NCBI GenBank assembly: GCA_963695715.1
Contig: CAVOHP010000014.1
Span: 154,612 to 218,611, forward strand
Direction: 5' to 3'
DNA from: an uncultured Chloroflexia bacterium
Lineage (GTDB): Bacteria; Chloroflexota; Anaerolineae; CG2-30-64-16
DNA length: 64,000 bases
Part shown: positions 2,159-60,802 of the stretch, piece by piece
Layout of the letters: every line of letters starts with the position of its first letter
How positions within the stretch are numbered: the first letter of the stretch is position 1
The notes under the pieces: generated by a model
Told to the model about the DNA's origin: nothing
The model's input: the letters and a program-made list of their open reading frames with translations, nothing else
Databases searched by the model: none
Made by a program: the position numbers and the translations under genes

Positions 2159-2234
2159 CGGGGACGGCTACACACCTTGTAGACTTCCGAAGTCTGGCAG
2201 ACTTCGGAAGTCTCTGTCGTCCGAGTGAGGTAGC

Positions 2235-4326
2235 GTGACGACCCAGATCGCCGCCAGAACCCTTGGGAACTCCCTGACCACCGGCCGCCGTGTACAAGCG
2301 GCCTGGTTGGCCTTCCTGTTGCTGGCGCTCAGCCTGGCGCTGCCCGGCATCGCTCCCTATCGTCAGCTCTTGCAGACGGTCTGCACCGGAGACGGCTGCA
2401 TCACGGGCCAGTTGTCGCCGCAGGAGGCCTGGAGCATCACCGAGTCTGGAGACACCCTGCTTGAGTACGCCGACCTGGCGCTCATGGTTTACCTCTTCGC
2501 CGCTGTGCTGGCCCTGATCACGGCAGGCTATCTGATCTGGCGCAAGTCGGCCTACCCCCCGGCTGCGTCCATGGGCTTCGCGCTCGCGGCGCTGAGCGCC
2601 GCCACCCTGGCTCAGGCCGCCGCGACGACCTATCCCGCGCTGCACCTCCCGGCGCAGTTGATCGGGATCGTTCCGATAGCTGCTGCAACGCTGTCCTTCT
2701 GTCTCATCCCCGACGGTCGCTTTCACCCTGGCTGGCTGCGGTGGGGCGTGCCGGCGGCGATGACAGCCGGGGCCCTGGCAACACTTGGAGTGTTCGGCGC
2801 CGCCATGGTGGCCGCGATCCAAGTGGGGATCGCGGCGCTGATCGTGGGCAGCCTGATCACCCGCTACCGCTCACTGCCGTCCTCGCCGCAGCAAGAGCAA
2901 GTTACTTGGGCGCTGGCAGCCTTCGCGTTGTTCGCAGGCGTACAATGGATCGGCAGACCGCTGCAATGGCTGCCTCTACCCGCACTGCCCGTGTCAGCAT
3001 TCCCGCTGACGTACAACATGTTCATGATCGTGTTCGGGCTGCTGTTGTTCATCGGCGGTCTGACCTGCGTCGCCGTGGCGCTTCTGGGCGATGAGTTGTT
3101 TCGGGTCGAAGTTGCGCTGAATCGCGCCCTGGTGTATAGCCTGCTCACCCTCTTCGTGATCGGCGGGTATGCGCTGGTCGTAGGCTACCTGTCATTGGTA
3201 TTCCAGTCACAAGGCAGCCTGTGGTTCTCGCTGATCGCCACCGGACTGGTGGCGGTGCTCTTCCAGCCGATCCGGGTGCGCGTGCAACGCGCGGTGGACC
3301 GGCTGCTCTACGGCGAGCGGGACGATCCCTATAAGGTCGTCGCCCAGTTCGGGCAGCGCCTCGAGGATACGTTGGAACCGGGCGCCATTCCGACCGCCAT
3401 CGCGGAGACCGTGCGGGCGTCATTGCACCTGCCCTATGCCGCCCTCACCCTGGAACTGAATGGAGCGACTGAGATGCTCGCTGAAAGCGGCGCCTCGGCA
3501 TCTGAGCTGATCTGTTTCCCGCTGATCAACCAGGGCGCGACGGTGGGCAATTTGCTGGTCAGTCCTCGGCGCGGCGATGCGGGGCTGAACGCCGCAGACC
3601 GCGCCCTGCTCACCGACCTGGCGCTGCAGGCGGGTGTCGCGATCCACGGCGTTCGCCTGCTGAACGACCTGCAGCAGTCACGCGAACGATTGGTGCTGGC
3701 GAGAGAGGAGGAGCGCCGCCGTCTGCGACGCGACCTCCACGATGATCTCGCGCCGACACTGGCAGGACTATCATTACGCGCCGGCGCGATCAGCGATTTG
3801 ATTCTGACGGATCCGATCAAAGCGCAAGGCCTCGCAGACGGCCTGGTCTCAGCGATCCGCGACGCCGTGGGCGACATTCGGAGACTCGTCTATGACCTGC
3901 GCCCGCCGGCGCTGGATGACCTGGGACTGCTGGGAGCCATCCGCGAGCGCGCGGCCGATTACAGCCTGGGGTCTGCCGGCGCGCCCGGGCTGACGGGTGG
4001 ATGTGGATTTACCGGATAGGCTGCCGCTATTGCCTGCGGCCGTCGAGGTTGCGGCCTACCGGATCACTCAGGAAGCACTGATGAACGTCATCAGGCACGC
4101 CCAGGCTCACAACTGTCACGTTCGGGTGACGCTGACGGATGCGCTGACCATCGCGATAGAGGACGATGGCGTCGGCCTGTCAGGACCACGTACGGCAGGC
4201 GTAGGACTCCGCTCCATCCAGGAACGCGTCGCCGAGTTGGGCGGCGAATGCAAGATCACATCGGGCGTAGAGGGCGGCACAAGCATTGTGGTGCGCCTGC
4301 CGGTCGCGCAGAGGCAAAGCAAATGA
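2235..4326 (+). CDS. Sensor histidine kinase, NarL/HisKA_3 type, with large N-terminal multi-TM domain; split by one frameshift near 3990
   Basis: GTG start; 8+ TM helices; H-box LHDDLAPTLAGL; second ORF carries the HATPase_c domain (VAAYRITQEALMNVIRHAQA...DDGVGL). The expected GL-VDVDLPDR junction is broken by one extra G in acgGGGtgg (3994-3997). Confidence 0.8.
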
Positions 4327-4976: not shown

Positions 4977-5085
4977 CCGCATGGAGACTCCCGAAACCTG
5001 GATTATGGATTTACGCCGCGCCCGAAGAGATGTTATCCTCAGCTACCATTCAAGTCAACTGTCTCAGAACACGCGAGGTAAACCA

Positions 5086-8118: not shown

Positions 8119-8217
8119 TGTTGGGTGGGATTCCGATCCGCTACGCTACAGCGCTCACAACGTGAAAGCAGGGGACATTCTGTAGCTCGATCGGATTTAA
8201 CGGCGTGATTCCAGCCG

Positions 8218-8364: not shown

Positions 8365-10537
8365 CAGCTATGCGCTTCTACCAGGGCGACCACGTCCGGG
8401 AAGTCGATGCCCAGCTCGTGCAGCTTCTCCACCGTCGGGATGCCGTTCGCGTTCCAGCCGCGGCGCTCGTAGACCGCGTCGCAGAGTTCTGGTATTGATC
8501 CTCGCGATAGGCGCGCAGCGCGGCGATCTTCTCGGCGTGGTCATGCCTGACGGATCAATGCCGACCTTCTCGCGCAGTTGCTTGTCGTAGCGCTCGACGC
8601 GGCTCTCGTATTCCTCGACTGTCACCGGCCCGGCGGAGCGATAGGGGATGCGATCGTGCCGGCGCGTGCCGAAGCCCATCCGCAGGTTGAAGACGCGCTG
8701 GAAGTTGTAGACCCGCTCGGACATGGTGATCAGGTCTTCTTTGGTCACCTCCACGCCCGGTGATGCCGGAGAAGAGCGCCGACGTAGTTCGCCACATGCT
8801 CCGGCACCTTCGCCGGCTCATCGGTGAGCGCGTTGTCCACCGGCTCGATGTCGTTCCACGGCAGCTTGCACAGCCCGTTCAGCCCGAACCAGGTGCGCCA
8901 CATCGGGAAGTAGTGCAGCGCCTCGGCCTTGTCTTCGAAGGTCGGGAATCTGGTTGTTCACCATGTCCATGAAGATCAGCCAGGCCTCGTCGTGCTGCGC
9001 GCCCTTGTTGGTCATGCCGTAGCCGCCCTGCTGCGCCAGGCTCTCCTTGGTCATGTACTCGCGAGTATTCCATCCCCTTGTTTTCCATGCCGATGTCCTC
9101 GAGGAACGCCGGATCGGCGCCGTAGTGCTCGGCGAAGTAGGTCCTTCATCGCGCGGACGCCCATGCCCGGCGATCAGGCCGAAGCCGCTCGCCCGCCGCC
9201 ATTCGATGCAGCAGCGTCGATCGCCGCGTCGGCGTTGCCGAAGCGCAGCTCCAGCCCGCCGGTCTTCTCCAGGTCCAGGATGCCCGCCTCGAAGCACTCC
9301 ATGACGAACGCGGTCAGCGTGCCGAAGGAGATCGAGTCGATGCCGTAGGTGTCGCAGTAGAAGTTCAGCTCGATGATGTCGGGCGGGTTGAAGATGCCCA
9401 GGTTCGAGCCGCAGCCCGCCACCGTCTCGTACTCCGGCCCGTCCACGGTGACGCACTGCGCCGCGATACGGCCCGGTGCGCAGCACGAAGCGATCCACCC
9501 CCTTCGAGCACGCCATGGTGCAGCCGTAGAAGCAGGCGTCGGGGATGCCCTGCGTGAAAGGTCGTCCCACACCGTGTGAGTTGATCTTCGGCGCGTCCGG
9601 ATGGGAGCCGAAGCTGAAATTGTGAACCGGCAACAGGTCGTAATCGTCCATGATCTCGACCAGGTGCGCGGTGCCCACGCGGCGCATCCGGTTCTGCTCG
9701 TCGTCGAGATCGGCGATCTCCTTGTTGATGCGTTGGCCTACGGCGCGGATGCGTTTGAGATCGGCCGGGTCGTTGGAGTCGGCCTTCAGCCGGTGTAGCG
9801 GCAGACGATGGCTTTGATTTTCTTGTCGCGCAGCACCGTGCCCAGCCCGCCGCGGCCCGGCCTGCTTGATGCGCGCCGTGCCGCGCCGCAGATCGTACCA
9901 GCTCACGTTGAGGCAGCCGATGCGCGTATGCTCGCTGCCCTGCCCGGCGGAGACCACCGACATGTTGCGCCTGTCGGCTTCGTCCTTCGCGTACATCGCC
10001 GTCAGCTGCTCGCCGATGAGGTGGGAATCCACGGCTTCGAGGGGCGCCGTCCTCGATGGTGACGCGCCCGGTGTCGCCGTCGATGACGAGGATCACGTCT
10101 TCGTCGGCTTTGCCCTGGACCTCCAGCGCGTCCCAGCCGGCGAACTTGAGCAAGCGGGCCGAAGTAGCCGCCGACGTTGCTGTCCACGACGATGTGGGTC
10201 AGCGGCGAGATGGCGACCACCAGCGATTTGCCCGTGCCCGGATAGAGCACCGTGCCGCCGATGGGGCCGGAGGCGATCACGATTTCGTTTTCGGGGTCAT
10301 TCCACTGGGTCTCGTCGCGTCACGGCGTGCCACAACCGCCACAGCCCGAACCCCTTGCCGCCGACGAAGATGTCGCTTCATCTCGTCGGTGACGGGTCGA
10401 GCTTCGATATGGCCGGTGGCGAGATTGACGTAGAGGGTTTGCCCGGCGTAGCCGCGATGCACCTTGGGGACCGCGTAGAGATATTCCGACGTAATGTAAT
10501 GCGCCGTCTTCAATTCCTGGATTGCTTCAAGGGTCAT
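8365..10537 (-). pseudogene. Aldehyde:ferredoxin oxidoreductase (tungsten AOR family) gene split by several frame changes
   Basis: AOR-like segments in successive frames: GYAGQTLYVNLATGHIE (N-terminus, AGGAGG RBS), ASGPIGGTVLYPGTGKSLVVAISPLT, LKFAGWDALEVQGKADEDVIL, DGPEYETVAGCGSNLGIFNPPDIIELNFYCDTYGIDSISFGT, QGGYGMTNKGAQHDEA, ITMSERVYNFQRVFNLRMGF...LVEAHS*. Several frame changes within ~2.2 kb. Confidence 0.75.
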
Positions 10538-10716
10538 CTTTGACGCCTCCTGATGAGTTTTCCCATGACCCCATTCTCGCGCTATCCGAGGCCAACAGTC
10601 CATGACCGGCGTCATGGCCGCGAACGGGGCCGGTCAAGCGGGGAATGAAAAGAGCCGACGATTTCTCGTCGGCCCCTTCGATGATCTCAGGCGGGATCAA
10701 GTACGAACGGAATCGA

Positions 10717-11140
10717 CTAAGCAAGCAGGCTGAGAATCAGATTCATGGCAACAGGATTTGCGTCGACGCCGATACCCAACAGGCTCAACACCCAGTTGAT
10801 GAGCCAGCCGACAACGCCAATCGCGATGGCAGCGATGAGCGCGCCGGTGAAGCCATTGGTCTTTAGGCCCGGCAGGAATGACGCGCCGAACATCAGGACA
10901 AGCGCTGCGACGACGACAGTGATGATCCATCCAAGGAGGCCGCCCATGGATCCGAGGTTGATACCGAGAAGCCCGAGCAGCCAGTTGACGACAGCGACAA
11001 TCAGGGCGATCACCAAAGCCGGCGATGATCGCGCTGCCGAAGCTGTCAACACTGAGGCCGAGGTTGAGTCTGCTCACGATCCAGAGAACCAGAGCAGCCG
11101 CGAGAAGAGCGATGATAAATGTCAGAATTGCACCAAGCAT
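10717..11140 (-). CDS. Small 4-TM membrane protein, resembles the phage-holin-4_2 (DUF360) family; one frameshift
   Basis: MLGAILTFIIALLAAALVLWIVSRLNLGLSVDSFGSAIIAG then, in a second frame, ...LIVAVVNWLLGLLGINLG...LGWIITVVVAALVLMFGASFLPGLKTNGFTGALIAAIAIGVVGWLINWVLSLLGI; family call is tentative. Confidence 0.45.
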
Positions 11141-13468: not shown

Positions 13469-13620
13469 AGCGTACCACTGACGTCGCACTACGAAGAGGC
13501 CTGCGACGCGGTCTGGCGACGGCTTTGACGCATGCCCCGAAAGACGCTAGAATCACCTGTGAGCCATGTTGTGTGGTTCGCCTGTGATCTCTGCCCTGTC
13601 ACATCCGGAGGAACAAAACG

Positions 13621-15328
13621 ATGAAACGCACCTTTGTCTTGCTATCTCTGCTGGCGCTTGTCAGCCTGTTGTTTGCGGCTTGCACGCCCGCCGTGGCGCC
13701 GGCGCCGCCCGCGCCGCCTACCGAAGCGCCCGCCGAAGCGCCCACGGCGATGCAGCCCGTCTTGCCGACGCCCACCGATGCGCCGGCCGACGCGCCTACG
13801 GTCGAGGCAACCGATGCACCGGTCATCGAACCGGCGGGGCTTTCAGCTCCCATGACGCTGCGCCTGCCCGATCTGGAGGGGCGCGAAGTGATCGCCGTGA
13901 CAGAGAACGCCTATACGCCGCTCAACTTCGTGGATCCCCTCACCGGCGAGGCCGTGGGCTGGGAATATGAGGCCGTCGAGGAAATCTGCCGCCGCCTGAA
14001 TTGCACCGTGGACTGGCAGATCTCCTCGTGGGACGCCATGATCCCCGCCGTGAAGGACGGCCAGTTTGACGTGGGCATGGACGGCATCACCATCAACGAC
14101 GAGCGCAAGGAGCAGGTCGACTTCTCCATCCCCTACATGACCTCGGAGCAGTTCATGCTGCGTGCGCGCCGGGGAAGACCGCTTCACCGATGCGGCGAGC
14201 TTTGCCGCGGATGAGAATCTGTTGATCGGCTCGCAGGCCGGCACGACTAACTTCTACACCGCCGTATACGAAGTGCTGGACGGCGACGAGGCGAACCCGC
14301 GCATCAAGCTCTTCGAGACCTTCGGCGCGGCCGTGCAGGCCCTGTTGACGGGCGATGTGGACATGGTGCTGATGGACGCCGCGTCATCGAAGGGGTACAT
14401 CGGCGCCAACCCGGATAAGCTGGAGACCATCGGCGAACCGCTGGGCACGGAGGAGTTCGGCTTCATCTTCACGCCCGGCTCCGACCTGGTCGAGCCGTTC
14501 AACGCCGCCATCGCGCAGATGGCAGCCGACGGCTACCTGGATTATCTCAACAATCGGTGGTTCTTCCACACCGACCCCAACGCAGAAGACATGTATGACA
14601 AGCTGCCCGACCTGGAGGGGCGCGAGGTGATCGCGGTGACGGAGAATGCCTATACGCCGCTCAACTTCGTGGATCCCCTCACCGGCGAGGCCGTGGGCTG
14701 GGAATATGAAGCCGTCGAGGAAATCTGCCGCCGCCTGAATTGCACCGTGGACTGGCAGATCTCCTCGTGGGATGCCATGATCCCCGCCGTGAAGGACGGC
14801 CAGTTTGACGTAGGCATGGACGGCATCACCATCAACGACGAGCGCAAGGAGCAGGTCGACTTCTCCATCCCCTATATGCTCTCGGAACAGTTCATGCTGG
14901 TGCGCGCGGACGAGGATCGGTTCCAGACGCCACAGGAATTCTCACAGAATCCAGACCTTCTGATCGGCTCGCAGGCGGGCACGACCAACTTCTACACCGC
15001 CGTCTACGAAGTGCTGGACGGCGACGAGGCGAACCCGCGCATCAAGCTCTTTGAGACCTTCGGCGCGGCCGTGCAGGCCCTGTTGACGGGCGATGTGGAC
15101 ATGGTGCTGATGGACGCCGCCTCCACACGGGGGTACATCGGCGCCAACCCGGATGCGCTCAAGAGCCTGGGCGAACCGCTGGGGACAGAGGAGTTCGGCT
15201 TCATCTTCACGCCCGGTTCCGACCTGGTCGAGCCGTTCAACGCCGCCATCGAGACGATGCAGCAGGATGGCTACGCAGGATCGCTGAACCTGCGCTGGTT
15301 CTATCTGTACGATTCGGCCGCCAACTAA
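13621..15328 (+). CDS. Lipoprotein with two tandem periplasmic solute-binding domains (amino-acid ABC substrate-binding type); one frameshift at ~14164
   Basis: Signal peptide plus lipobox LFAAC, PA-rich linker, then two copies of [92 protein letters not shown]...SEQFML(V)RA.EDRF...[13 protein letters not shown]...; junction ctgCgtgcgcgcc versus copy-2 ctggtgcgcgcgg indicates a 1-nt insertion. Confidence 0.8.
13859..15305 (+). repeat. Direct tandem duplication, unit ~740 bp, copies nearly identical (a handful of substitutions in the ~290-nt block compared; second block more divergent), spanning one complete solute-binding domain
   Basis: 13860-14150 almost identical to 14600-14890; 14215-14520 nearly identical to 14955-15260; identical spurious antisense ORFs 13911-14129 and 14650-14868 arise from it. 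Confidence 0.85.
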
Positions 15329-18389: not shown

Positions 18390-21300
18390 TTACGGGAGGA
18401 TCACCGGGCAGTCCGGCGCCGTCCCGAGGCCGTTGCTGTCGGTGCAGACGATGCGGCCCTGAGGGGCCGGGTTCACGGGGGTGTTGGCGCTGATGTAGTC
18501 CGCCAGCACGTCATCCATTAGGTTCTGGGTGGTCATTCGAGAGGCGACATTCGGATACCCGTCGCCGCCGTAGGCCACGAAGTCGTTGGTCGTGAGCGTG
18601 TAGCTCGCGCCGGCCGTCATATCAATCGGCGCGCCGGTGCACGACCCATCGGCCGCCTGGCGCACCGCGCTCGACACGCGGCTATTGGGCGCCAATGCGA
18701 TGTCATAGGTGAAGCAGAGGCCTGAGATTTGCGGGAAGCGCCCGTCGCTGGTGGTCGTATTGAAGAACGATACGCCATTTTCCAGGAACGCCTTCAACTC
18801 GGAGCCTGAGATTTCCACCGTCACCGCTACGTTTCCGAACGGCAGCACGGCGAGGACTTGTCCACGCGTGATGGGGTACGGAGGCGGCGTGAAGGCCGGG
18901 CAGTAATCGCCGGCGATGTCCGTCGTCGGGCAGGTCAGATTGGCGCGCAAGCCGCCTGCGTTGGTGAGGGCGAAGTCGGTGAGGTAGGTCGTGCGCATCG
19001 CATCGGTGGTCAGATCGCCGATCAGCGACTCGCAGCGACGCCCGCTGGCGTTGCCGCAGATGTCGGCGCGCGGGATGGCGACGCCAGATTCACCAACCAT
19101 CGTGTTGAAGATCGGCCCAAGCTGGGTATTGAGGTCGTCAATCATCGCCTGGATCTCGGGATCAGATGTCACGCCGATGTTCCAGGGCTTGTGATAATCA
19201 CCCGTCATGTAGATCACGTCCTTGCGGTTCGTGTCAATCGTGAAGCGGGTGCGGTTGAACCGGACGCCGGCGTTGATATTCTCCGTCACCATGACGCCGT
19301 TGGGGCGGAAGGTCACGTACTGAAGATGCGTGTGGCCGCCATAGACGGCATCCACACCGACCAATGCATCGGCGAAGTCGAGCAACTCACTGGTCGCCGG
19401 GTCGGGATCCGTCACCGTGCCGCCAAATGCGCCGATGTGCCCCACCGCCAGCACGACGTCGGCCTTGGTCTTGCCCTTGAACTGAGTCACTGCGGTGTTC
19501 ACGGCAGCAACGGGGTCGGTCACCACGAACGGATCGAGGTAGCCGGGGAAGATGAGCTGAGGCAGCTCGGTCAGGGTGTAACCGACCACGCCAACCTTGT
19601 ACCCGCCCATGTTAAAGACCCGCGAAGGCGACCATTCGGCGGGCGTTTTGTTGGTTGCGGGGTCAATCACATTGGCCGACAGGTAAGGATGATCCGCCAG
19701 CGGGATCAACTCGGTGCGCAGGTACTCCTGCCCATAGTCGAACTCGTGGTTACCCAACGCGTCCGAGGTCACGCCCATCATGTTCTTCGTTTCGATGGTG
19801 GGTTTATCGCCAAAGAAGTTCGAGATGGGCGGCGTCGCGCCGGTCGAGTCGCCGGCGGCTACCGTCAGTGAACCATCTTTCGCCTCGGCCCGGTATACGT
19901 CGAACCACGGCTTGAGGAAGGCCGCGCCGCCGATGGCGAACGACGGATTGGTGACTCCGGTACCGCTGAGGTTATCAGAAGTCTGCGTCAGCGGGACGAG
20001 TTGGCCGTGGAAGTCGTTGATGCTCAATACGGTGAGCTCTTTGTATTGGCCGGGCGCCTTGAACAGCTCGTACATGATCCGGCCGCGAGCATTGACCGGG
20101 CCGGGGAAGTTCAGCATGAACGAGAGCGTCGGCGTCAGATCAATGGCCCGGACGCCCGCCGCAGGGCCGCCCTTCCAGATGCCGGGGCCGGCCGCCACGA
20201 ACGTGGCGTGCATGTTGACATTGTCCGCCAGGTTGACGGTCTCCGGCAGGTAGCCGTGCTGCCCGAAGAACTGCGAGAAGGCGATGGTCTGGCCCAGGGT
20301 CGCCGCATCGAACTGATACGGCGGCTTGAGCACCACGACGACATCGCCGCTGCGGTTGGGATGGAGGGAGTCGCTGCCATCCACGTCACGCAACTCTTCC
20401 TTCATCATGATCTTGAGCACAACGTCCGCGCCGGGGTTGGCCGGGTCGGTCAGGCCCTGGAAGGCGTTGACCACGGCTGTGCGCACCTGCTCATAGGTCG
20501 TCCCGGCGGGCAGCGTCGTGTTGACGTAAATCTGCGCCGTGCCGCCCGCCCAGCAGGCCTTGGCCAGGTTGACAGCGCCGGTTCCGGTCGCCGCGCGGCA
20601 GTTGCTGAAGACTTCGCTGCCGTCGCCGTTCTTCTGGATGCCGGCGTTGGCCAGCACCTTGCCGGCGTTCACCGCCAGCCACTGGGCGCCGAACCCATGA
20701 TCGGAGGCGGCGAAGACGGTGGTTTTGTTGCGGCCCATCATCAGCCGGGCCAGGGCCAGCGTGTCATCGGCTTCGGAGTAGGCGGCGCGGATATACCCGT
20801 CCGCAATTTCGGGCGTGATGACCTGGCCGAAAGAGGTGTAGGTGTTGTAGTAGGGGTTGTTGACCCCGTTCACCGAGGAGGTCGTGAGGCCCAGGAACAT
20901 ATGGGAGAACTCATCGGTGACAGGATTCCCCAACATCAGCAGGTCGGGCTGATAACCCATACCCATGACGGTCCCACCGCTCACCGTGGGCACAGGCCCC
21001 GTGCCCAGGATGTACTTGAGGTAGGTGTGGTGGGCGTCTTTCCACTTCAGGCCCTGCTCGGCATAGGTGTCTGCATCTACCAACCCCGATTCGAACACGG
21101 CATAGTCGGCGGCGGTCGAGCTGGGGAACCACTTGTTCAGGTCTTCTTCGAAGTCGCCGGGATACCCACAGCCGTTGCAGGTTGCAATGGCGCGCGCTCG
21201 CGGAGGTGAAGAAGAGGCTGAACTGGCTCAGGTCGGGCGCGAACAGCATGGCCTTGACGTAGAACCCGGCCGTCTTGCCCGAAGTCAGAGTGACCTTAAC

Positions 21301-22140
21301 ATCTGCCCAGCCGCCCTGCATCAGAGTGGCGATAGCCGCGCTGCCATCCTTACCGGCGGCATGGGGGGCAATCAAGACCTTGTCGTAATTGACGACACCG
21401 TCGTTGGTGGTGTCGTAGACGTAGAAGTCGTACTGGTCGTCAGCAACAGACGACGACGCAATATCGAATGTGCCCTGTTTGGCCGGGCTGTAGCTGGCCG
21501 GAACGTTGCTCCAACCGGCGGCATCGGCCAGGTCGTAACGCTGATATTGGACGCCGAACGCTGCGGCGCCGGCAGGCTGACCGGGCACATCCCAGTTGGT
21601 CCACAACCCGCGATTCGAGTAGAAGCCCCGATAGTCAATCACCGGGCCTTGCAACGGGGTGGATGTGCGGGATCCGCCGGCCCATTCAACCGATACGACC
21701 CGCTTGCCGGCGCGCTCTGCGGCTTCGGCGATGGTGTCTGCCTGCAGAACGTCATTCGAGAACGCCGCCGTGCGGTTGTTGAACAGGTCGCCGGATCGGA
21801 AGAAGGTGTTGTTGGTCGAACCATGTTCGCTGGGGTACGCGCCGGTTGCCAGGGTATACCACCCGACGCCGGTGTTGGGCGGGAAGGCTTGAACGAGACC
21901 ATTATCGCCCTTGACGCCTTTTGCCATCAATTCGGCATAGGTGGGCATGTCGCCTTCTGAAGCATAACGCTCCATGATATCGGGGCGCATCCCATCGGCG
22001 GCGAAGAAGATCGCCTTGTAGGCGAGCGGCTTCGGCGGCTGGGGCACTCCCACGGGCGCGGCGCTTGCGCTCAACGGCGCAAGCAACATCACGGCCAGCA
22101 GGCTGAAAACCAGTAGCCTGTACACGGACTTCCTACTCAT
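18390..22140 (-). CDS. Secreted fusion protein: alkaline-phosphatase-superfamily nucleotide pyrophosphatase/phosphodiesterase (NPP) domain plus 5'-nucleotidase/2',3'-cyclic phosphodiesterase (calcineurin-like plus 5'-NT C-terminal domain); one frameshift near 21200
   Basis: Signal peptide; [10 protein letters not shown] and [15 protein letters not shown] (NPP motifs) lie on opposite sides of the frame break; then [22 protein letters not shown] metallophosphoesterase motifs and a 5'-NT C-terminal domain; about 1,250 aa total. Confidence 0.75.
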
Positions 22141-22496
22141 GACCGTCTCCTTTCAGCAAACCTGATGAAAATTGGGCCGGGCCGATGGCGCACTGAAATC
22201 AAGGTGCACGCGAAGACACACCCCGGTTGCGTGAGCTATCGGCAAAATGATGAGAAACTTCGACGGACCGTCAGATGCTGGCATTAGCAGAAGATACCTG
22301 CCCACAGATGATAGGATATTATCATGCCTCGATTAAGAGGCCGGCAAGGTTCCGTGATGCAGCGATAAAGAGAAGGTTAAACTATCTTCAGGATAAATGA
22401 AGGGCGGCCGATTCGGCCACGGCCAGTCATCTATCAACTCGCGTATATTGAGTATAGCAGGGTCGCGGGGATAATTCAAGCACAATATAGCGGTAA

Positions 22497-33973: not shown

Positions 33974-35781
33974 GTGAAAGCATCCATGATAGATAATGCG
34001 CCGTTGTTCGCCGACCTGTCGGACGAGCAGCGCGCGGCGCTCGCCGATCGCATGGCGTTGCGAGCCGTGGCCGCCGGGGCCGTCATCTACGCCCAGGGCC
34101 AGCCCGCAAGAGACATGTACTTCGTCGGGTCGGGGCGCGTGCGGCTGCTGGCAGGCGAGGACACCGTGGTCGCCAATCTGGGCCAGGGGGCGCTGTTCGG
34201 CGACGCCGATGTTCTGGCGGGCCGCCCTTACAGCCTGACCGCAGAGGCGGCGACGGATTCGGCGTTATGGGCGCTCGAGCGCGGACAACCTGGCAGGGGT
34301 GATCGAAAAGTACCCCGAGATGGGCCGCAAGTTGATGCTGGCCGCCGGCCTCAGCGTCGAGCAGACCGCAGAACGACATCTGAAGCGGCTGGGGTTGCTC
34401 AGCGGGCTGACCTCCGAGCAGATTCAGGAAGTCGCGGGGCATCTGACCACGCAAGATTTCGCCGCCGGACAGGCCATCTATCGCGAGGGCACACCGGGCG
34501 AGGCGCTGTACATCATCGAAGACGGGCAGGTGTCGTTGCAAGCCGGCGGGTTCGTGACCGGGAACCGTTGGCGAGGGCGAGTTCTTCGGTGAAGCCGCGC
34601 TGCTCAACAACGACCTCCATGCCAACGATGCCATTGCACAAACCGCCTCGACGATCTGGGTGCTGGGACGCGACGATTTCGAGGAGCTGGCGCTCAAGTA
34701 TCCCGCCCTGAGCCTGAACCTGATGCGCGCGCTCAGCCGCCGATTGCGCGTGGGCGCGCCGGCAGCGGCGGCAGTCGCAGCGACGGCACCGGCCGTCCAG
34801 GCTTCGGCCCGCGCCGCAGCGCCGGTCGCCGTGGCGAGCGCGGCGGCCCCGCGCCGCCCGGTTCCCGTTGCGCCGCCCAGCGCGGCGGCCGTCACCGTCG
34901 AAAAGGCCTCGGGTTCGGCGACATCATGGTGGGGTACAGCCACGACGGGGGCGAAGATCCGCCTGGTGGCGTTGATCTTGCTGCTGATCTGGCTGATCGG
35001 GATCGCCACACCGCTGGCGATCATGAGCATGCGCCAGAACAACCCGGCATCGCGTTCGATGAATTCGGCCCGCCAGCGGCCTGATGTGCGCAGCCAGGTC
35101 GTCCTGTTGGCGCTGGCCGCGGATTTGCCGGTGCAGACCACGCCGACTTACACGCCCTGGCCCACTGAGACGCCGATGCCGACGGCCACCTTCACGCCCA
35201 CGGCCACGCCGACCGAAACGCCCATCCCGACGGCCACCTTCACGCCGACCGAGACGCCGGTCCCGCCGACTTCCACGCCGGTCCCGCCCGCGCCGGTCGC
35301 CCGCCAGGCCGCGCCGGCGCCGGTTGAGCAACCCGCCGCGCAGGAAGCTGCGCCGGTTGCAGCCGCCGCCGCAGTCCAGGCTGCGCCGGCCGCGCCAACC
35401 GTGCTCTACAAGCTGGTCGAGATGCGCCGGTTGACCGCGTGTGAGAATAAGGGCAACCATAACATCTTCATCGAGGTGATTGACGCCGCCGGGAATCCCC
35501 TTGATGGCGTCACGCTCGTTCAAACATCCCAGGATCAGATCGGCAACGTGCTGGATAAAGCGGTTTCCGGCGTGAAAGGCCCCGGCAAGGCCGAGTTCCT
35601 GCTGTGGAAGATGGCCGAGTACGCCGTCTACGTCACTGAAGACGGCTCTAACCCGGCCAGCACCGACATCGCTCGCCCCCTGCATTCCAACTTCACCGAC
35701 GAAGCCGAGTGCTCGGATGGCGGCGGCGGGAACACGCTGTTCCACAACTCCTTCAAGGTTGTGTTCCAGCGCACGTCCTGA
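33974..35781 (+). CDS. Single-pass membrane protein: two N-terminal cyclic-nucleotide-binding domains, Ala-rich spacer, TM helix, PT-rich linker, C-terminal unrecognised domain ending VVFQRTS; two frameshifts (~34280, ~34565)
   Basis: CAP_ED-like 1: FADLSDEQRAALADRMALRAVAAGAVIYAQGQPARDMYFVGSGRVRLL...GALFGDADVLAGRPYSLTAEA; CAP_ED-like 2: LTSEQIQEVAGHLTTQDFAAGQAIYREGTPGEALYIIEDGQVSLQAG...GEFFGEAALL...TIWVLGRDDFEELA; TM IRLVALILLLIWLIGIATPLAIM; C-terminal CENKGNHNIFIEVIDAAGNPLDGV...KGPGKAEFLLW...FKVVFQRTS. Confidence 0.65.
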
Positions 35782-45161: not shown

Positions 45162-46430
45162 ATGCAAACGACAGCCGTCCGATTGCATGGCAAGAAGGAT
45201 TTGCGCCTGGAGACCCTCGCTCTGCCGAAAATCAAGGATGATGAAATCCTGGCCAAAGTAATCTCAGACAGCCTCTGCATGTCCACATACAAAGCTGCCC
45301 TGCAAGGCAGTGATCACAAGCGCGTTCCGGCTGATATTGACGTGGTTCCTGTCGTGGTCGGCCATGAGTTTGCGGGCGAGATTGTTGAGGTTGGGGATAG
45401 ATGGAAAGCCCAATTTGCGCCGGGAGACAAGTTTTCCATCCAGCCAAACATCAATTCGCGCGGACTGGGCTACGCGCCGGGTACTCCTTCCCATACTTCG
45501 GCGGAGACGCCACCTATATTGTGGTTCCGGGAGAGGTGATGGAGAAGGGTTGCCTGCTTGATTACGAAGGCGACGCCTTTTTCAAGGCATCGCTGGCCGA
45601 ACCGATGTCGTGCATCATCGCGGCCTTCCATGCGTCTTATCATACCGAAGAGGATGGGCAGGCTCACAAGATGGGCATAGTCGAAGGGGGAACCCTGGCG
45701 CTCCTCGCCGGAGCCGGCCCGATGGGTCTCGGCGCGATTGACGTCGCGCTGCATGGCGCGAGAAAACCGGCTCTGGTGGTGGTGACAGATATTGACGACG
45801 CAAGGCTGCGGAGGGCAAGCGCCCTCTTCACTCCTGAATCCGCCGCCAGAGCAGGGGTCCGGCTGGAGTATGTCAATACCAAAGATCGTGCGGATGCCGA
45901 CAGAGCATCTGCGAGAGTTGACCAACGGTAAGGGCTTCGACGACGTATTCGTCTTCGCACCCGTCAAGCCGGTGGTAGAGCTGGCAGATCGGATCCTGGG
46001 GAAAGATGGGTGTTTGAATTTCTTCGCCGGCCCCACGGATCCCAGGTTCTCGGCGGAATTCAATTTCTACAACGTGCATTATGCTTCAACCCATATCGTG
46101 GGCACCAGCGGCGGAAACACACAGAATATGGTGGAGGCCCTGGACCTGATGGGGAAAGGTCTGGTCAATCCCGCAGCCATGATCACCCACGTCGGCGGCC
46201 TGGACAGCGTCGCCGCCACGACCCTGAATCTCCCCCAGATACCGGGCGGGAAAAAGCTGATCTATACACACATCAAAATGGATTTGATCGCCATCGAAGA
46301 CCTGGCGAAGAGAGCAGAAACGGACCCCCGATTCGTTGAGCTGGCAGAAATCGTGCAAGAAAGCCAGGGCCTGTGGTCCGCCGCGGCTGAGCGGTATCTG
46401 CTTGCGAACGCTCCGGCCATACAGGCATAA
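45162..46430 (+). CDS. Zinc-dependent medium-chain dehydrogenase/reductase (polyol/sorbitol-dehydrogenase-like); two frameshifts (~45480 and ~45900)
   Basis: GGAGGA ribosome-binding site; CMSTYKAAL...GHEFAGEIVEVG (catalytic Zn ligands), GAGPMGLGAIDVAL Rossmann motif; three successive frames. Confidence 0.7.
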
Positions 46431-53750: not shown

Positions 53751-56700
53751 TCAATCATACGCAGACCGATCTCCTCCGCCCGTCACCGGCAGGAACATCG
53801 GCGGCGGGGCCACGTCACCCTTGAAGCGCGGGATGAGCCGGTAGCCGCCCACGTAAGGCTGCTCTGCGACGTACTGGCCGACCACGCCGCGCGCCACCCA
53901 CCAGTCGCCGAGGTGGACGTAGGGCCGCCGCCAGGGGAGGTCTTCGGGGAAGTAGACGCGGAGCGCGCCGCTGCCGTCATCCAGCAGGAGCGCGTTCGGC
54001 TCGTACCTGACGACGCGCCCAAGCACCAGCGCAAGCTGTCCTTCCTGCGCTTCGCCGAGGCGCCCGGTCGCCACGCGCACCGCCGCCGGTATCTCGCCCT
54101 TGCCCAGCAAGGTGATGTAACCGGGGTCGGGGACAGACAGTTCCAGCTCGCCGTGATAGTCGCGCGTCCAGCCGGTGACGCGCAGCAGGTCGCCCACAAC
54201 CAGCGGCGGATACTCGCCCTTGCGGAGATAGATGCGCGCGCCGCCCGTCGCATCCTGGATGTAGATGCTGCGCCCGAACAGCCCCGGCGGCAGCGTTACG
54301 ACGCCGGTGAGCGTGACGCGCGTATCGGGCGGCAAGGCGCGCACGTTCGCCATCGCGGTCTCGCCCGAAAGACCGCCAGAGCGGGGACGGGGGTCGCCCT
54401 GCCGCCCGGCGGCGATCGTCGTCATCGGCGTCGTCATCCCGCGGCGGTCGCAATCGGTTCGCCTGCCCCGGCGTGACCACGCAGTCGGAGGTCCAATCGC
54501 CTGAGCCGTCGGCGGCGCGGCAGAAGCTACGGTCGTCGCCGGGGCCATGCGCGTATTCGAACCGGTCAAGCTCGACGCCATCGGGCCGGGAAAGCGTCAC
54601 GCTGTCGCGTGAATCGCCCAGCGACAGGCCCGTTTGCGCGCGGAACAGCAACAGGTAGGCGCGCGGCCAGATCACTGTGCCGGCGGGGAGCGTGTAGGCG
54701 CCGGCGTCATCGCCGATGCGCCATCCACCCAGCGTCGCCGGCGTTTCACCGGCGTTGAATAACTCGATCCACTCGTCGCGGAAGTCGGCCGCGCCATCCC
54801 CATCCCAATCCACCTCGCGCGGGTCAGGCAAAATCTCGTTCAGCGTGACGCCTTCGGGATAGGCGGTCGCCGTCGGCGTTGCTGTCGGCGTCGGCGTTGC
54901 GGTCGCCGTTGCAATCGCCGTGGGAGAAGCGGTGGCCGTCGGCGTCGGTCGAATCGAATTCGCGGTTCCGGGCGAGCCGAAATCGCCCGCGCCGCCGGGC
55001 CACGGCGACCAGGACATGCCCCAGCTCGCGCCCAGGCTGTTATCGAGCGCCACATCCAGCAAGACCATAGACGCCCCGGTCGGATCGGGAAACTCCGGCC
55101 CGCCATCGTAGGCCACGCGATCTATCTCGCTTCCTGCCCCATCCAACAGGATGATCTCGTCCACATCATTCCCCAGCAGGAAGCCGGAATATTCGTAGGC
55201 CATCGCCACGCCGCCGTTCACCGCGCGCATCGGCATTCCGACCCAGGACCAGATAATCGCCAGGCGCAATGAATAGCGGGCCGCCCGCCGCAATGCGATG
55301 CGTATCGGTTCCTTCGTCACGCAGGGTCCAACCGTTCAGATCAATCATATGGTCGCCCGCGTTGTATAGCTCGAACCACTCGCCGACAACGTCCGGCACG
55401 ACCGCGGGGTTCTGCATGATCTCGGTGATGATCACGTCGCCGGGTTGACCCAGGCCAGGCGTCTCTGTCGCCGTGGATGTGGCGGTGGGCGTAGAAATCC
55501 GGGTAGAGGTAGGCGTCGGCGTCAACGTGGGCGTAGCCGTTGCCGTCGGGGTGAATGACGATGTCGCCGTAACTGTGAAGGTGGCGTGGGGGTTGCCGTC
55601 GGCGTCCCGGACGGCGTAGGTGTGGGGACCGGGGGATTCGCGGCGCCGGGCGAGCCGAAGTCGCCCGCGCCGCCGGGCCACGGCGACCAGGATAAGCCCC
55701 AACTCGCGCCCAGGCTGTTATCAAGCGTCACATCCAGCAAGGTCATGGACGCCCCACTCGGATCCGGGAACGCATCCCCGCCATCATAGGCGATCCGATC
55801 AATCTCGGTGCCCATCCCATCCAGCAGGATGATCTCGTCGGCAGCGTTCGCCAGCAGGAACCCGCTGTAGGCGTAAGCCACCGCCACGCCGCCGTTCAGG
55901 GACGCATCGGCCTCGCGGCCCAGCACCAGATAATCGCCAGGCGCGATGAGCAGCGGGCCGGCGGCCTGGATGTGGTGATGGTCAACGCCATCATCGCGGA
56001 TCGTCCAGCCGTTGAGGTCAATGGGGCGAGCGCTCGCGTTATACAACTCGAACCACTCGCCCACCGTGTCCGAAACGGCGTCGGGGTTCTGCATGATCTC
56101 GGTGATGATCACGTCGCCGGGTTGGGCCGGTTCGGATGTCCATGTCGCGACGGGCGTACTTGTACTCGTGGCAGTTGATGCAGGTGTGGGGGTGACCGTC
56201 GCGGTCGGCGTCAGGGTATGCGTGGGCGTCGGCGTCAAGTGCGAGTCGGCGTGGGCGTCGCGGTCGGTGTCAGGGTATGCGTGGAGGTGGCGTCGCGGTC
56301 GGTGTGGGCGACGGCGTCATGGTGGGAGGCGGCGCGATGTTCGGGGAAGCCGGGCGACGGCGAAAAGCCCTCCATCCATTCCCCAAACCCATCTACCGCG
56401 CGGCTGTAACTCCGATCCGCGGTCGGGTTGGTGTAGGAAAAGGCGTCCACTTCGAGACCATCGGGCGCGAGCAGGCGCGCGGTGTCGGCGTCCTGGTTCA
56501 GCGCCACGCCCGTGCCCGAACGGTGACGCACCAGAAAGCCCATCGGCTCCAACACAGTCCCTGGCGGAAAGATGTAAGGCGATGTGCCGCCAAAGGCCAT
56601 GTCGTCCAGCGCCCAGCCGCCCAGGTCTATCGGATACGGTTCGAGGTTGTAGACTTCGATCCACTCATCGTAGGCATTCGCGACGCCGTTCCCGTCCCAA

Positions 56701-58215
56701 TCCACACTCATCGGTCGAGGCAATACTTCGTTCAGACGCACTCTCGGCCAGGGGGTGGCGGTCGCGGTCGGCGCCGGCGTGGTCGTGCAGGTTGGCGTCA
56801 GCATCGCGGTTGGCGTCAGCGTCGCAGTTGAAGTTGGGGTGGGCGTGTGAGCAGTCGTCGGCGTTGCGTCCGGCGGCGATGTTGCGACCTCCGTCGCCGT
56901 CAACGTGACGGTCATGGTCGGTGTGCGCGTGGGCGCTTCCGTGGACGTAGGCGTCGCCGTGGGCGCGGGCAGCGGGAGACCGGGGTGCGGCGTTGCCTGC
57001 GGCAGCCAGTCGGCGCGCGTGTTCGTATCCTCATCGGGAGGAACACGCGCCAGCGACCAGCCGGGATCGACATCCGGGCAAGGCGGGTCGAAGATGCCCG
57101 TATCCGAGCCATAACTCATGGCATCTATGAGTGTTCCATCCGGCGCCAGGAGCAACACCCGATCTCCGGCGTTGATCAGCCCGTCGCCGATGATCCCTTC
57201 CAGCGACACCAGCGGGCCGGCATAGCCGGGATGGTTGGCGAAGAACCCGGAAGCCGTGGCGGCGATCACCAGGAATTGACCCGACGGCAACACGATCGCC
57301 GGGATGGCGTCCGCCTCGGCGTTGTCGGCCACGCGCCAGCCCGCCAGATCAACGTCCGAGCCGCTCGCGTTGTAGAGTTCGATCCACTCGAACGGTTGGT
57401 CGCTGCCGGCCTGTGGTGCGTCGTACATGACCTCGCTCAGGAGCAGCCTGGGCCAGACAACAGGGGTGCGCGTCGCCGTTGAAGTCGCTGTTGCGGTTGG
57501 GGGCGCCGGAACGGGCGTCTCGGTGGGCGTCGGAGAGGGCGTCATCTCCGGCGTATCCGTGGGCGTTGTGGAGGGCACAGGGACTGGGTGTGACCGTGTA
57601 GGTCGGCGTCACGGAGGCAGTTGCCGTGGGCGCGGGGGCGGCGGGAATTGCGCCGGGGGAAGGCGCAGGTTGCGCGCGCCAGTCGGCGGCGGCATCCGTA
57701 TCCTGCGCAACCGAAACACGCTCCAACGACGACCCGGCGGGCACGTCGGGGCAGGGCGGACTGAAGGCCGAGACGTCGGAGCCGTAGCTCAGCGCGTCCA
57801 CGGCGTTCCCGGCAGGGTCCAGCAAGATGAGGCGGTCGGCCGCGTTGTTCAGACCATCGCCGATCGAACCCTCCAGCGTCACCAGCGGGCCAGAGAAACC
57901 GGGGTAATTGGCGAAGAAGCCGGAAGCTGTTGCGGCGACCACCAGCGTCTCGCCAGGGGCCAGCACGTAGGCGGGTACGAAGTCGCTCTCTGCGTTGTCG
58001 CCCACGCGCCACCCGGCAAGATTCACCGGCGCGCCGGTCGGGTTGTGGAGTTCCAGAAATTCATATTGCGTATCTGTGCCCGACTGCGGCGCGTCGTAAA
58101 GCACTTCGCTGATCAGGAGATGATCGGGCGATTCGGCGGCGCTGCGCCGGGAGAAAGGCGGTAGAAGGAACGAGGCGAAAAGAAGGACGACGGAAAAGAT
58201 ATGCAGGCGCGCCAT
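53751..58215 (-). CDS. Giant secreted multidomain protein: signal peptide, at least six lamin-tail domains (LTD) separated by Pro/Thr-rich linkers, C-terminal OB-fold-like domain; several frameshifts within internally repetitive DNA
   Basis: LTD signatures recur: LISEVLYDAPQSGTDTQYEFLELHNPTGAPVNLAGWRVGD, LSEVMYDAPQAGSDQPFEWIELYNASGSDVDLAGWRVAD, RLNEVLPRP...DEWIEVYNLEPYPIDLGGWALDD, VIITEIMQNP...GEWFELYNA...IDLNGWT(I/L)RD (twice), TLNEILPDP...DEWIELFNAGETPATLGGWRIGDD; C-terminal TLTGVVTLPPGLFGRSIYIQDATGGARIYL...; pieces lie in 6 ORFs in successive frames. Confidence 0.65.
54850..58100. repeat. Internal near-identical repeats (~700-bp period) inside the LTD gene
   Basis: For example 54940-55040 versus 55640-55740 (~90% identical) and 57000-57400 versus 57700-58100. 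Confidence 0.7.
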
Positions 58216-58371
58216 GGCCTACCATCCATTCAGAGAACCGTGAAGCTACAATGAGCGAACGGGATAGACTCGCGCGTTATATCACGAAGGCGAATGACTT
58301 GTCAAATGGGGCGACAAAAAACCGGGCGCTTTACAGCGCCCGGTCCAGATGTTCGGTTGCTTATTCCAGGT

Positions 58372-60601
58372 TTACTCGGCGCGGGTCAGGCCGGTCATGT
58401 CAACCTCGATGCCGCCCTCGCCCAGGTCTTCCAGCGCATCGTACAGGACCTGCGCTGCGTACACAGGGTTGTGTGCGAAGACGCCGGGGTCCTTCTGGAT
58501 GTACTGGTAGTTGTAGGCCGCGCGCAGCAGGCGAGGCGTCCAGGCCGCGAAGGCCCCTTCACCCTCATCAATCTTGCCGTTGGCGTTCGCATCTTCGAAG
58601 AAGTACGGATACGTCACTGCATCGTAGAGGATGGGTTTCTTGGCGACGTCTTTGGCATAGAGCTGCATCGCTGCGAACAGCTTCTCTTGCAGCGCCGTGA
58701 TCTCCGCAGACACGCCTTCCTTGGCGTCCTTGTCGCCGTCGAGGTCAGCCGCGCTGATGCGGATGTCCTGAGGCGTCTTGACGCCCGCATGGCAGGTCAC
58801 GCACTTGTCGAAGGCGAGTTCCTGCGTATGCGTGCCGTGGCAATCGGTGCAGGTCTGGAAACCGGGGGCGTGCATGTTACGACCGGCGTATTCCTTGTCG
58901 GCGTACTGATACGCGCCCTGAGCCTCGTCGCCGAACAGCGACGCGCCCGCCGCGAAGTAGTGTACGTTCGAGAAGCGCAGCGGCGTCTCGGGCACGACGT
59001 CATCTTCCTTGCCCTTGAGCTTGGCGTTCATCGAGGCCGTGGATTCGCGACCCTGATGGCATTCGAGACAGACGTTGGCGTCTGCCGGCAGGAGGTCGCC
59101 TTCTGCATTCTTCTCGGTGCTGAACGTGACGCTCTTCCCGCTGGGGAAGGGCACATTCGTCACCGGATGCAGGGTGAATTTAGCCAGATCGTTGTGGCAG
59201 GTGGTGCAGGCGAACCCGTTCGCCGGGTGCGCCGCCGTGACGCCGGTGGTGACGACGTTGCCGCGTCCGTCAACCGCGACTGTGCCGCCGTTCGCGAGGA
59301 ACTCAGGCAGGCCCTCGGAGGAGTGGCACTTGGCGCACGAAGCCGGAACCATGCCCTCTTCGTCCCAGTGACGGAAGGCTTCAGACGTGCCGTCGAAATG
59401 ACCGGCGTCGTCCCGAACCGCAGCCTCGAGGTCAATCGGCTTCGGCGAGCTTGGTGTTCAGGTCCGCGATCGAATCGTGCATCAACTGGACAACGTACTT
59501 GGCGTTGTGCGCGAACTTGCCGGGGTCCTTGCTGGCAACCTGGTAGTTGTAAGCCGCCTGCAACAGGCGCGCCGTCCAACTTGAGTAGCCCTTCTCATCC
59601 TCATCGGCCTTGCCGTTGTTGTTGGCGTCGGCAAACCAGTACGGATACGCCGCCGGGTTGTAGGCAATAGGCGCTTCCGAGACCTCTGCGGCGTAGGCCG
59701 TAATGGCCTCGCCCAGTTTTCCTTGCAGACCGGTCACTTCAGCCGAAACGCCTTCCTTCGCATCGCCGTCGCCGTCATAATCCATCAACGAGCCGGGCAT
59801 GCGAATCTTGGCGAGGTCTTCGACCTTGGCGACGCCCGCATGGCACGTGGCGCACTCTTTCACATCGAGCGCCAGCGTGTGCGAGTTGTGGCAGCCGACG
59901 CAGGTGTCATACGGCGCAGGATGCTGGAACTTGCCGTCATACGACATGTCGTCGTATTCGTAGCCGCCCTTGGCCTGGGTACCGTATTGCGTGGCTGCAG
60001 CAGCGAAGTAGTGAACGTTGCGGAAACCAAACGGCACTTCTTTGCCATCTACCGTCATGGGTTTGACGACAGCATCAAGATCGGTGACTTTGAAGTCCGC
60101 GATCTGCTTGTCCACGCTCACTTTGGATTCGCGCCCCTGATGGCATTCCATACAGCGGGCTTCGCTTCCGAGGCCGGTCATTTCGATGCCAGACGGGAAG
60201 ACAACGCCATCCTTGGTCGGGGTCACGGTGTTGTGGCAAGCCACGCACTGGATGCCGTTTGACGGGGGATGCTTTGCGTCAATCTTTCCGGCGGCGCTGC
60301 CATCAGCGCCCAGAAAGTCAAGATAGCCGGTGGTGGCGTGGCATTTGGCGCAGGCGGCAGGGACTTCCTTCGGATCTTCGGCGTCCCAATGGCGGAACGC
60401 CTCTGCCATCGCGTCTGCATGGCCGGAGCCTTGCCAATCCTTGAGGAAGGGGATCTCCGGTATAACGGGCTCGTCAGCCGCAGCGGCTGCTGCGGGCGCA
60501 GGGGTGGGCGTGGCATCCTGTGCGTAGGCCACAGCGCCGAAGGCTGTGAGCAACAGGACAACAATCAGGGCCAGCCCAAGGGACTTTCTCATGGCCTTCA
60601 T
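58372..60601 (-). CDS. c-type cytochrome made of two tandem pentahaem modules (decahaem if fused); the second module lacks its own signal peptide and the split coincides with a frame change at 59432-59440
   Basis: AAGGAGG ribosome-binding site, signal peptide MKAMRKSLGLALIVVLLLTAFGAVAYA; module 1 CAKCH, CVACH, CMECH, CVGCH, CATCH; module 2 CAKCH, CTTCH, CLECH, CTDCH, CVTCH; modules are paralogous (AEAFRHWDAEDPKEVPAACAKCH versus SEAFRHWDEEGMVPASCAKCH; both end KDPG.FAHN); the module-2 frame is open upstream to within 3 nt of the module-1 stop. Confidence 0.7.
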
Positions 60602-60802
60602 CGGTCCTCCTTGTGTCTTGCATGGGGTGGAGACACATGTTGAGATACTGACGTTGCAAATACAAATTGAGGAGCTTATGCCGTTATTGTCACCTCCTTC
60701 ACCGGATATATGATCCTGCTCAGAGACGGGACAGTCCTGTCGCAAGATCATCTGGCGCTCACGGGGTGCAAAATCAAGGTGAGCGTTTAGACGGGATTAC
60801 GT

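Follow-up and report, generated by a model that had tools for sequence, protein, structure and literature searches.

Are two adjacent open reading frames (ORFs), each encoding five CxxCH motifs of a c-type cytochrome, two genes or one gene broken in two? The question is raised by positions 58372-60601, on the minus strand, of a 64,000-nucleotide (nt) stretch of DNA from an uncultured Chloroflexia bacterium (contig CAVOHP010000014.1, positions 154,612 to 218,611), referred to here as the window. An original prediction had taken the two frames for a single decahaem cytochrome gene, made of tandem pentahaem units and carrying a frame error of 1 nt. The comparisons reported below bear this out: fused orthologues are the rule, and the closest relative of the gene differs from it by one frame-breaking base. 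As judged from sequence comparison, the locus is probably one ordinary decahaem cytochrome gene to which an indel-prone assembly has added a spurious base at 59441/59442. The gene itself is most likely intact in the organism.

Two pentahaem halves at one locus

The elements on which the argument rests are the following.

58372..60601, minus strand: reconstructed single decahaem c-type cytochrome gene, 742 amino acids (aa) after removal of one T of 59441-59442
60601..59432, minus strand: ORF 1, corresponding to module 1, 389 aa with five CxxCH; it ends in ...LNTKLAEAD, followed by TGA at 59434-59432
60352-60338, 60247-60233, 60154-60140, 59902-59888 and 59854-59840, minus strand: CxxCH motifs of ORF 1
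60521..60601, minus strand: predicted signal peptide of Sec type (or N-terminal anchor), MKAMRKSLGLALIVVLLLTAFGAVAYA, followed by a linker rich in alanine, proline and threonine (A/P/T-rich)
59457..58372, minus strand: open frame of module 2, 361 codons plus stop, with its first ATG at 59352
59352..58372, minus strand: ORF 2, 326 aa with five CxxCH, beginning MVPASCAKCH
59337-59323, 59208-59194, 59070-59056, 58851-58837 and 58803-58789, minus strand: CxxCH motifs of module 2
59441..59442: site of the 1-nt insertion, TT on the plus strand; the coding strand reads GAAG against GAG in the closest relative
Junction peptide expected only from an intact gene: LAEPIDLEAAVR

The two frames (60601..59432 and 59352..58372, with five CxxCH each) are adjacent halves of one decahaem cytochrome, as had been proposed. 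The two modules can be aligned with each other from end to end at 45% identity over 357 columns (E 4e-93), far above chance. Their homology persists upstream of the ATG of ORF 2, where AGHFDGTSEAFRHWDEEG in module 2 corresponds to SGHADAMAEAFRHWDAED in module 1. The ATG at 59352 is thus internal to module 2 and does not mark its real start. The conserved segment AGHFDG, which contains a candidate distal histidine, also sits 5' of this ATG. On the side of module 1, the ATG at 60751, a longer start given in the ORF list, is not the start of ORF 1, since orthologues begin at the equivalent MKxxxK.

The frame of module 2 is shifted by +1 relative to ORF 1. It had been described as open to within 3 nt of the module-1 stop; it is in fact open as far as a TGA at 59460-59458, and therefore shares with ORF 1 the last 26 nt of the latter (59457-59432).

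The two frames differ in their export signals. As read from the sequence, ORF 1 begins with a basic n-region; a hydrophobic core about 15 residues long follows, and A-Y-A stands ahead of QD. The equivalent residues (6-26) are helical in the structural model of an orthologue. Inspection of ORF 2, which starts directly at MVPASCAKCH, revealed neither a hydrophobic N-terminus nor an export signal. The attachment of haem to c-type cytochromes requires export. The argument of the original prediction that an unexported half cannot mature is thus sound biochemistry, and the position of AGHFDG upstream of the ORF-2 ATG adds to it. With a classic signal-like N-terminus on ORF 1 and none on ORF 2, every polypeptide is provided with a signal only if the locus is read as one gene.

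The fused form is the rule among relatives

The original prediction had suggested a search of related genomes for a fused orthologue of about 740 aa; more than 100 proteins of 730-770 aa and about 66 complete single-frame loci were recovered. The fused conceptual protein used as a query gave 3,970 significant database matches. Among the best 120 of these 3,970, nearly all are full-length proteins of 730-770 aa, with 93-100% query coverage and at most 82% identity, and more than 100 full-length fused orthologues are thus found among database proteins. Some longer homologues (1,030-1,290 aa) bear additional Ig-like domains. The 90%-identity cluster to which ORF 1 belongs also holds a fused protein of 755 aa. 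The repaired protein aligns colinearly, along its entire length (100%), with orthologues of 730-755 aa that are 82-87% identical to it. In particular, it is 82% identical over 100% of its length to the orthologue P0001 and 85-89% identical to the protein of the closest relative (L001), whose residues 400-755 are matched at 89% identity by the module-2 frame.

A scan limited to one genome per species yielded 79 loci, about 66 of them complete. Nearly all belong to metagenome-assembled genomes (MAGs) of Anaerolineae or other Chloroflexota, a few to Myxococcales or Aminicenantes, and the lineages represented include Ca. Amarolinea aalborgensis, Promineifilaceae, Caldilineaceae and Ardenticatenaceae. 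All ten CxxCH lie within a single open frame in the complete loci, and a split between the modules was found in none of these approximately 66. Most of the 56 loci found in a metagenome scan match from query residue 1, that is from the module-1 tail, so that a single match crosses the junction. Among 87 aligned orthologues, 86 share a junction of 39 residues (...DSIADLNTKLA[EK]P[IV]D...R.D.GHFDG). In the sequences surveyed, the fused decahaem form is the norm for the family. The window sequence as given departs from it in that a +1 change at 59441/59442 keeps the two modules from sharing one ORF.

Two members of the family are disrupted at places other than that of the window: an in-frame stop divides the haem motifs 8 + 2 in L070:5896-7971, and a frameshift divides them 3 + 7 in L075:12-2085. 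Stand-alone relatives consisting of a single pentahaem module also exist (L069:988-2736, L077:5788-7017 and L078:4411-6987). L069 resembles module 2; this paralogue, from an Anaerolineales MAG that also holds a full decahaem copy (L015), has a transmembrane anchor of its own and a long proline/threonine-rich (P/T-rich) linker. L077, from a Thermodesulfobacteriota MAG, has a lipoprotein-type signal. Each of the three carries its own signal or anchor, unlike module 2 of the window.

One frame-breaking base

The closest relative of the locus (L001/L002) is found on contig JBBQRS010000047 of the Anaerolineae MAG Co_metawrap_1702, a short-read assembly. The contig is syntenic with the window and shares with it the order lepB, ABC ATPase, def, cytochrome and a giant protein with lamin-tail domains (LTD). 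Over the whole cytochrome gene the two sequences are 85.6% identical at the nucleotide level (MAFFT DNA alignment), and only two indels separate them over 2.2 kb. One is an in-frame difference of 39 nt (13 aa) near 60490, in the A/P/T-rich N-terminal linker, and represents ordinary variation of linker length. The other is an additional base in the window and the sole difference that breaks the frame: the coding strand of the window reads CTC GCC GAAG CCG ATT GAC where L001 has CTG GCC GAG CCC ATT GAC. A tblastn search with the L001 protein switches from frame -1 to frame -2 at the same place, residues 1-400 finishing at 59441 and residues 400-755 beginning at 59442. The frame error had been placed at 59432-59440; the extra base thus lies 1-2 nt outside that interval. 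Its removal restores the conserved junction LNTKLAEPID, and the conceptual repair results in a single ORF with ten CxxCH and the junction LNTKLAEPIDLEAAV.

Both modules are conserved in their coding content. In comparison with L001, modules 2 and 1 have ratios of non-synonymous to synonymous substitution rates (dN/dS) of 0.17 and 0.09, respectively, at dS values of 0.38-0.64. Module 2 contains no stops, and the repaired protein keeps all ten haem motifs and all ten conserved distal histidines. By these measures, purifying selection still acts on module 2. Its lack of decay implies that the frame shift is either very recent or not real. In the alignment of 87 sequences, the histidine of each CxxCH and most of the cysteines are invariant, the other cysteines being nearly so. 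Five further histidines per module, outside the motifs, are conserved: SGH, NVH, FQH, CHNSH and FAH in module 1, and AGH, NVH, NMH, CHGTH and FAH in module 2. These ten residues are candidate distal ligands.

Frame breaks elsewhere in the window

The cytochrome is not the only interrupted gene of the window. At least nine further same-strand frame breaks were counted in the 64 kb, about one per 6 kb, and the genes broken in the window are intact in L001. At least five of the breaks lie in the LTD gene, which encodes a giant surface protein directly downstream of the cytochrome (53757-58215, minus strand) and is divided into at least six pieces. In L001 this gene is one ORF of 1,694 aa; in the window the matches run successively through frames -2, -3, -2, -1, -2 and -3. 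One of its breaks is a clean 1-nt insertion near 55226, in a conserved domain, and the remaining ones are in or near P/T-rich linkers. Further break points within these coordinates are at about 54367, 54416 and 57586.

Other breaks affect genes that have no relation to the cytochrome. A histidine kinase gene (2229-4326, plus strand) has a +1 break around 3970-3994, with HisKA_3 encoded in 2229..4019 and HATPase_c in 3994..4326, and CCC and GGG runs are abundant in the context of the break. In a gene with a cNMP-binding domain (34239-35781, plus strand), positions 2-30 and 44-88 of the profile fall in different frames; the break, around 34560-34590 and near GGGAACC, resembles a 1-nt insertion. 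In a phosphodiesterase / metallophosphatase / 5'-nucleotidase gene (18390-22152, minus strand), positions 2-117 and 157-341 of the Phosphodiest profile are likewise in different frames, and the open frames overlap at 20911-21227. The breaks in the cytochrome, histidine kinase, cNMP-binding and phosphodiesterase genes are all four +1 in ORF coordinates, as 1-nt insertions predict. In the clear cases, the piece downstream of the break stays open and has good domain matches, which implies that so many frameshifts, if real, would all need to be very recent.

Further genes, at 8818-11073 (minus strand), 45786-46430 (plus), 4903-6163 (plus) and 13588-15328 (plus), are possibly broken as well. An aldehyde:ferredoxin oxidoreductase (AOR) match covers only positions 2-82 of a profile of 385, an ADH_zinc_N match comes without the N-terminal part and a beta-lactamase match ends at position 260 of 329; judging from the profiles, these truncated matches may add further breaks. 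An SBP_bac_3 match ends at position 93 of 132, and a second SBP frame comes after it. The fragmented aldehyde:ferredoxin oxidoreductase adjoins a second, unrelated decahaem cytochrome (6364-8145, minus strand), which has an open frame of 594 codons with ten CxxCH and matches Pfam Cytochrome_cB (PF11783).

Expression signals

The signals flanking the locus are the following.

60606..60612, minus strand: Shine-Dalgarno sequence AAGGAGG, read from the sequence, 4 nt 5' of the ATG at 60601
58316..58343, minus strand: intrinsic-terminator-like hairpin, CCGGGCGCU / AGCGCCCGG with loop GUAA, followed by UUUUUU, 29 nt past the module-2 stop

The hairpin was missed by a scan for consensus terminators and was supported by RNA folding (-26.1 kcal/mol, z -3.1), none of 200 shuffled sequences folding as well. 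No comparable terminator-like element was seen in the 80 nt between the stop of ORF 1 and the ATG of ORF 2. One strong Shine-Dalgarno sequence, one signal peptide and one terminator hairpin fit one gene and one expression unit. The locus would accordingly give one transcript, with a single ribosome-binding site, signal peptide and terminator. Its product would be exported by Sec and would receive its ten haems outside the membrane, the five conserved non-motif histidines of each module providing bis-His ligation of all ten.

Error, mutation or genuine split

As the window contains no fewer than nine frame breaks besides this one, an indel-prone assembly is the best explanation for the extra base, and a frame shift at the inter-module linker leads gene callers to output two ORFs. 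Several points nevertheless weigh against a mere error. The insertion lies outside any long homopolymer, a single A having become AA, and the break falls in an inter-module linker of about 60 nt within a gene of 2.2 kb, where a random error would strike with a chance of about 3%. This linker is also the spot that would best tolerate a real mutation, as module 1 would lose neither its signal peptide nor any haem, and a truncated module 1 could be viable given the stand-alone single-module relatives. The base is moreover judged erroneous from sequence comparison. An exact-pattern scan of metagenome contigs that tolerated zero or one extra base yielded no independent assembly of the strain, and the best metagenome relative is only 78% identical. 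If the frameshift is instead real and recent in the strain, only the 389-aa pentahaem module 1 would be exported and the gene would be truncated or becoming a pseudogene. Module 2 would then be untranslated, or produced from the internal ATG as a cytoplasmic, haem-free apoprotein. Such a mutation would have hit exactly the least harmful place, away from any long homopolymer, in a family where L070 (in-frame stop) and L075 (frameshift) are also disrupted at other positions and where single-module proteins with export signals of their own occur naturally (L077, L078 and the module-2-like L069). It is nonetheless unlikely, since several of the other breaks of the 64 kb are inside conserved domains of unrelated genes, the downstream parts being intact in the clear cases, so that an assembly-wide error process is far likelier than many independent recent mutations, and since module 2 has not decayed (dN/dS of 0.17, no stops, all motifs present). 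It is more doubtful still that a real extra base has produced a natural fission, after which module 1 would be exported and work alone as a pentahaem cytochrome in the manner of L077, L078 and L069; if true, this would mean that the halves of the decahaem family are functionally separable. The alternative of a pseudogenised duplicate, put forward in the original prediction, is not quite adequate: module 2 is the C-terminal half of an ancestral gene, under purifying selection, and no spare copy.

A programmed +1 ribosomal frameshift or a transcriptional slippage at the junction would allow the unaltered window sequence to encode the decahaem protein. The stop of ORF 1, UGA, stands before a C, a context in which termination is weak and which superficially resembles that of prfB, and 26 nt are common to the module-2 frame and the end of ORF 1. 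This mechanism is very improbable, as all of the approximately 66 complete loci and 87 aligned orthologues are in frame and show no shift here. As the conserved P-I-D codons already occupy the +1 frame ahead of the stop, the shift would have to take place at GCC-GAA-G, which is not slippery and does not form a homopolymer; shifting at GAU-UGA would lose the conserved P-I residues. With an unconserved shift site, no slippery codon and no Shine-Dalgarno-like stimulator upstream, a prfB-like programmed +1 frameshift was rejected. Equally improbable is the existence of two truly separate genes, with module 2 as an independent cytochrome. The stand-alone module-2-like paralogue L069 in another Anaerolineales MAG offers a precedent, and a weak GAGG lies 2 nt ahead of the ATG at 59352. 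L069, however, has a transmembrane anchor and a P/T-rich linker, and module 2 of the window has neither. The ATG is unconserved, orthologues carrying V or A at this position, and lies 3' of the invariant distal-His segment GHFDG; a c-type cytochrome made from it would remain in the cytoplasm and get no haem. The reading of one decahaem gene with a spurious base remains the probable one. The split is most probably no feature of the organism, and the gene belongs, as an unexceptional member, to a large decahaem family that has no name.

Protein family, fold and known systems

The decahaem family has neither a Pfam nor an NCBIfam model of its own. In profile searches of both modules against Pfam and NCBIfam, only generic c3, c7 and paired-CxxCH matches were obtained, none of them at the NCBIfam cut-off. 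The fused relatives are labelled 'hypothetical protein' or 'cytochrome c3 family protein' in their sources. The family is nonetheless large, with about 4,000 database matches, and is present in most of the Anaerolineae lineages sampled. Its closest representatives are the fused decahaem cytochromes of Anaerolineae and Chloroflexota (730-770 aa), for example the 755-aa protein of the MAG Co_metawrap_1702 (JBBQRS010000047) and the homologue of Ca. Amarolinea aalborgensis. They are colinear over their full length with the window protein, at 45-87% identity, and share with it the ten CxxCH, the ten conserved non-motif histidines and the inter-module linker. The window copy differs from them by the extra base at 59441/59442 and the resulting two ORFs. 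A literature search returned nothing on this decahaem family specifically, and no experimentally studied member was found. For Anaerolineales and Ardenticatena, published reports describe multihaem cytochromes as well as respiration with electrodes or iron (PMC7399161, PMC5808234).

A sequence search of the PDB with a 755-aa relative gave no significant match, so that the fold had to be compared. In the AlphaFold2 model of the 82%-identical orthologue P0001 (pLDDT 88.6, pTM 0.84; the model contains no haems), the pentahaem core fold and long C-terminal helices characteristic of the NrfA/OcwA/ONR superfamily are present. Foldseek ranked OcwA (6I5B) first, with a probability of 0.98. According to this model, each module is an NrfA/OcwA-type pentahaem unit with long C-terminal helices, and the unit is tandemly duplicated.

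OcwA, a nonahaem cytochrome of the outer cell wall of Thermincola potens (PDB 6I5B), likewise has an NrfA-type haem-packing core and long C-terminal helices, and is the surface cytochrome of a monoderm, where it acts as a terminal reductase in extracellular electron transfer (PMC6703420). It is composed of a c554-like tetrahaem unit and one NrfA-like pentahaem unit, and among its nine haems two have open coordination and one is a His/Met haem (PMC6703420). The window protein is merely 14-19% identical to it and, unlike it, consists of two tandem pentahaem units with a candidate distal histidine for every haem. By analogy, OcwA may be regarded as the nearest working counterpart.

NrfA itself (PDB 1QDB, 6V0A, 1OAH; PF02335) matches module 2 only in part, over haems 4-5 and the helices (26.2 bits for a cut-off of 24.1, profile positions 237-376 of 438), and module 1 not at all. 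A pattern search for CxxCK in both modules gave CxxCH only, the first motif being CAKCH in each. The modules also differ from NrfA by a conserved histidine before haem 1, which suggests six-coordination, and by their size, about 350 aa against about 450-480 aa; the window family is furthermore a tandem duplication. An identity as NrfA nitrite reductase was rejected on the lack of CxxCK, the partial PF02335 match and the five non-motif histidines per module. The sequence points to a role in electron transfer rather than in catalysis, and the protein would act as an electron-transfer wire at the surface of a monoderm cell.

MtrC, OmcA and MtrF of Shewanella also have ten haems. These extracellular electron conduits contain two pentahaem domains that are thought to derive from a duplication. 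Both modules of the window weakly match PF22113, which describes domains II/IV of these proteins, with scores of 15.6 and 28.9 bits, under the cut-off of 30. No structure of the MtrC family appeared among the structural matches, and the beta-barrel domains I/III are not predicted in the model. With a sub-threshold PF22113 score and no structural match, membership of the MtrC/OmcA family was rejected.

In more distant genomes (L081-L083), the decahaem gene is located near NapC/NirT-type cytochromes (560-730 aa), an MtrC-like cytochrome of 818 aa and b-type cytochromes (Ni_hydr_CYTB). This neighbourhood, which is absent from the window, suggests a quinol-to-surface electron-export chain.

Consequences for annotation and for the family

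The locus should be annotated as one decahaem cytochrome of 742 aa and not as a pentahaem cytochrome followed by a signal-less orphan. The corrected annotation alters the haem counts on which genome-based predictions of extracellular electron transfer are founded. In view of the many breaks of the window, gene calls from this assembly need polishing or frameshift-aware handling. Independently of the split in the window, the large size of the decahaem family, its tandem NrfA/OcwA-type fold and its NapC/NirT and MtrC-like neighbours elsewhere make it a reasonable candidate for a surface electron conduit of monoderm Anaerolineae.

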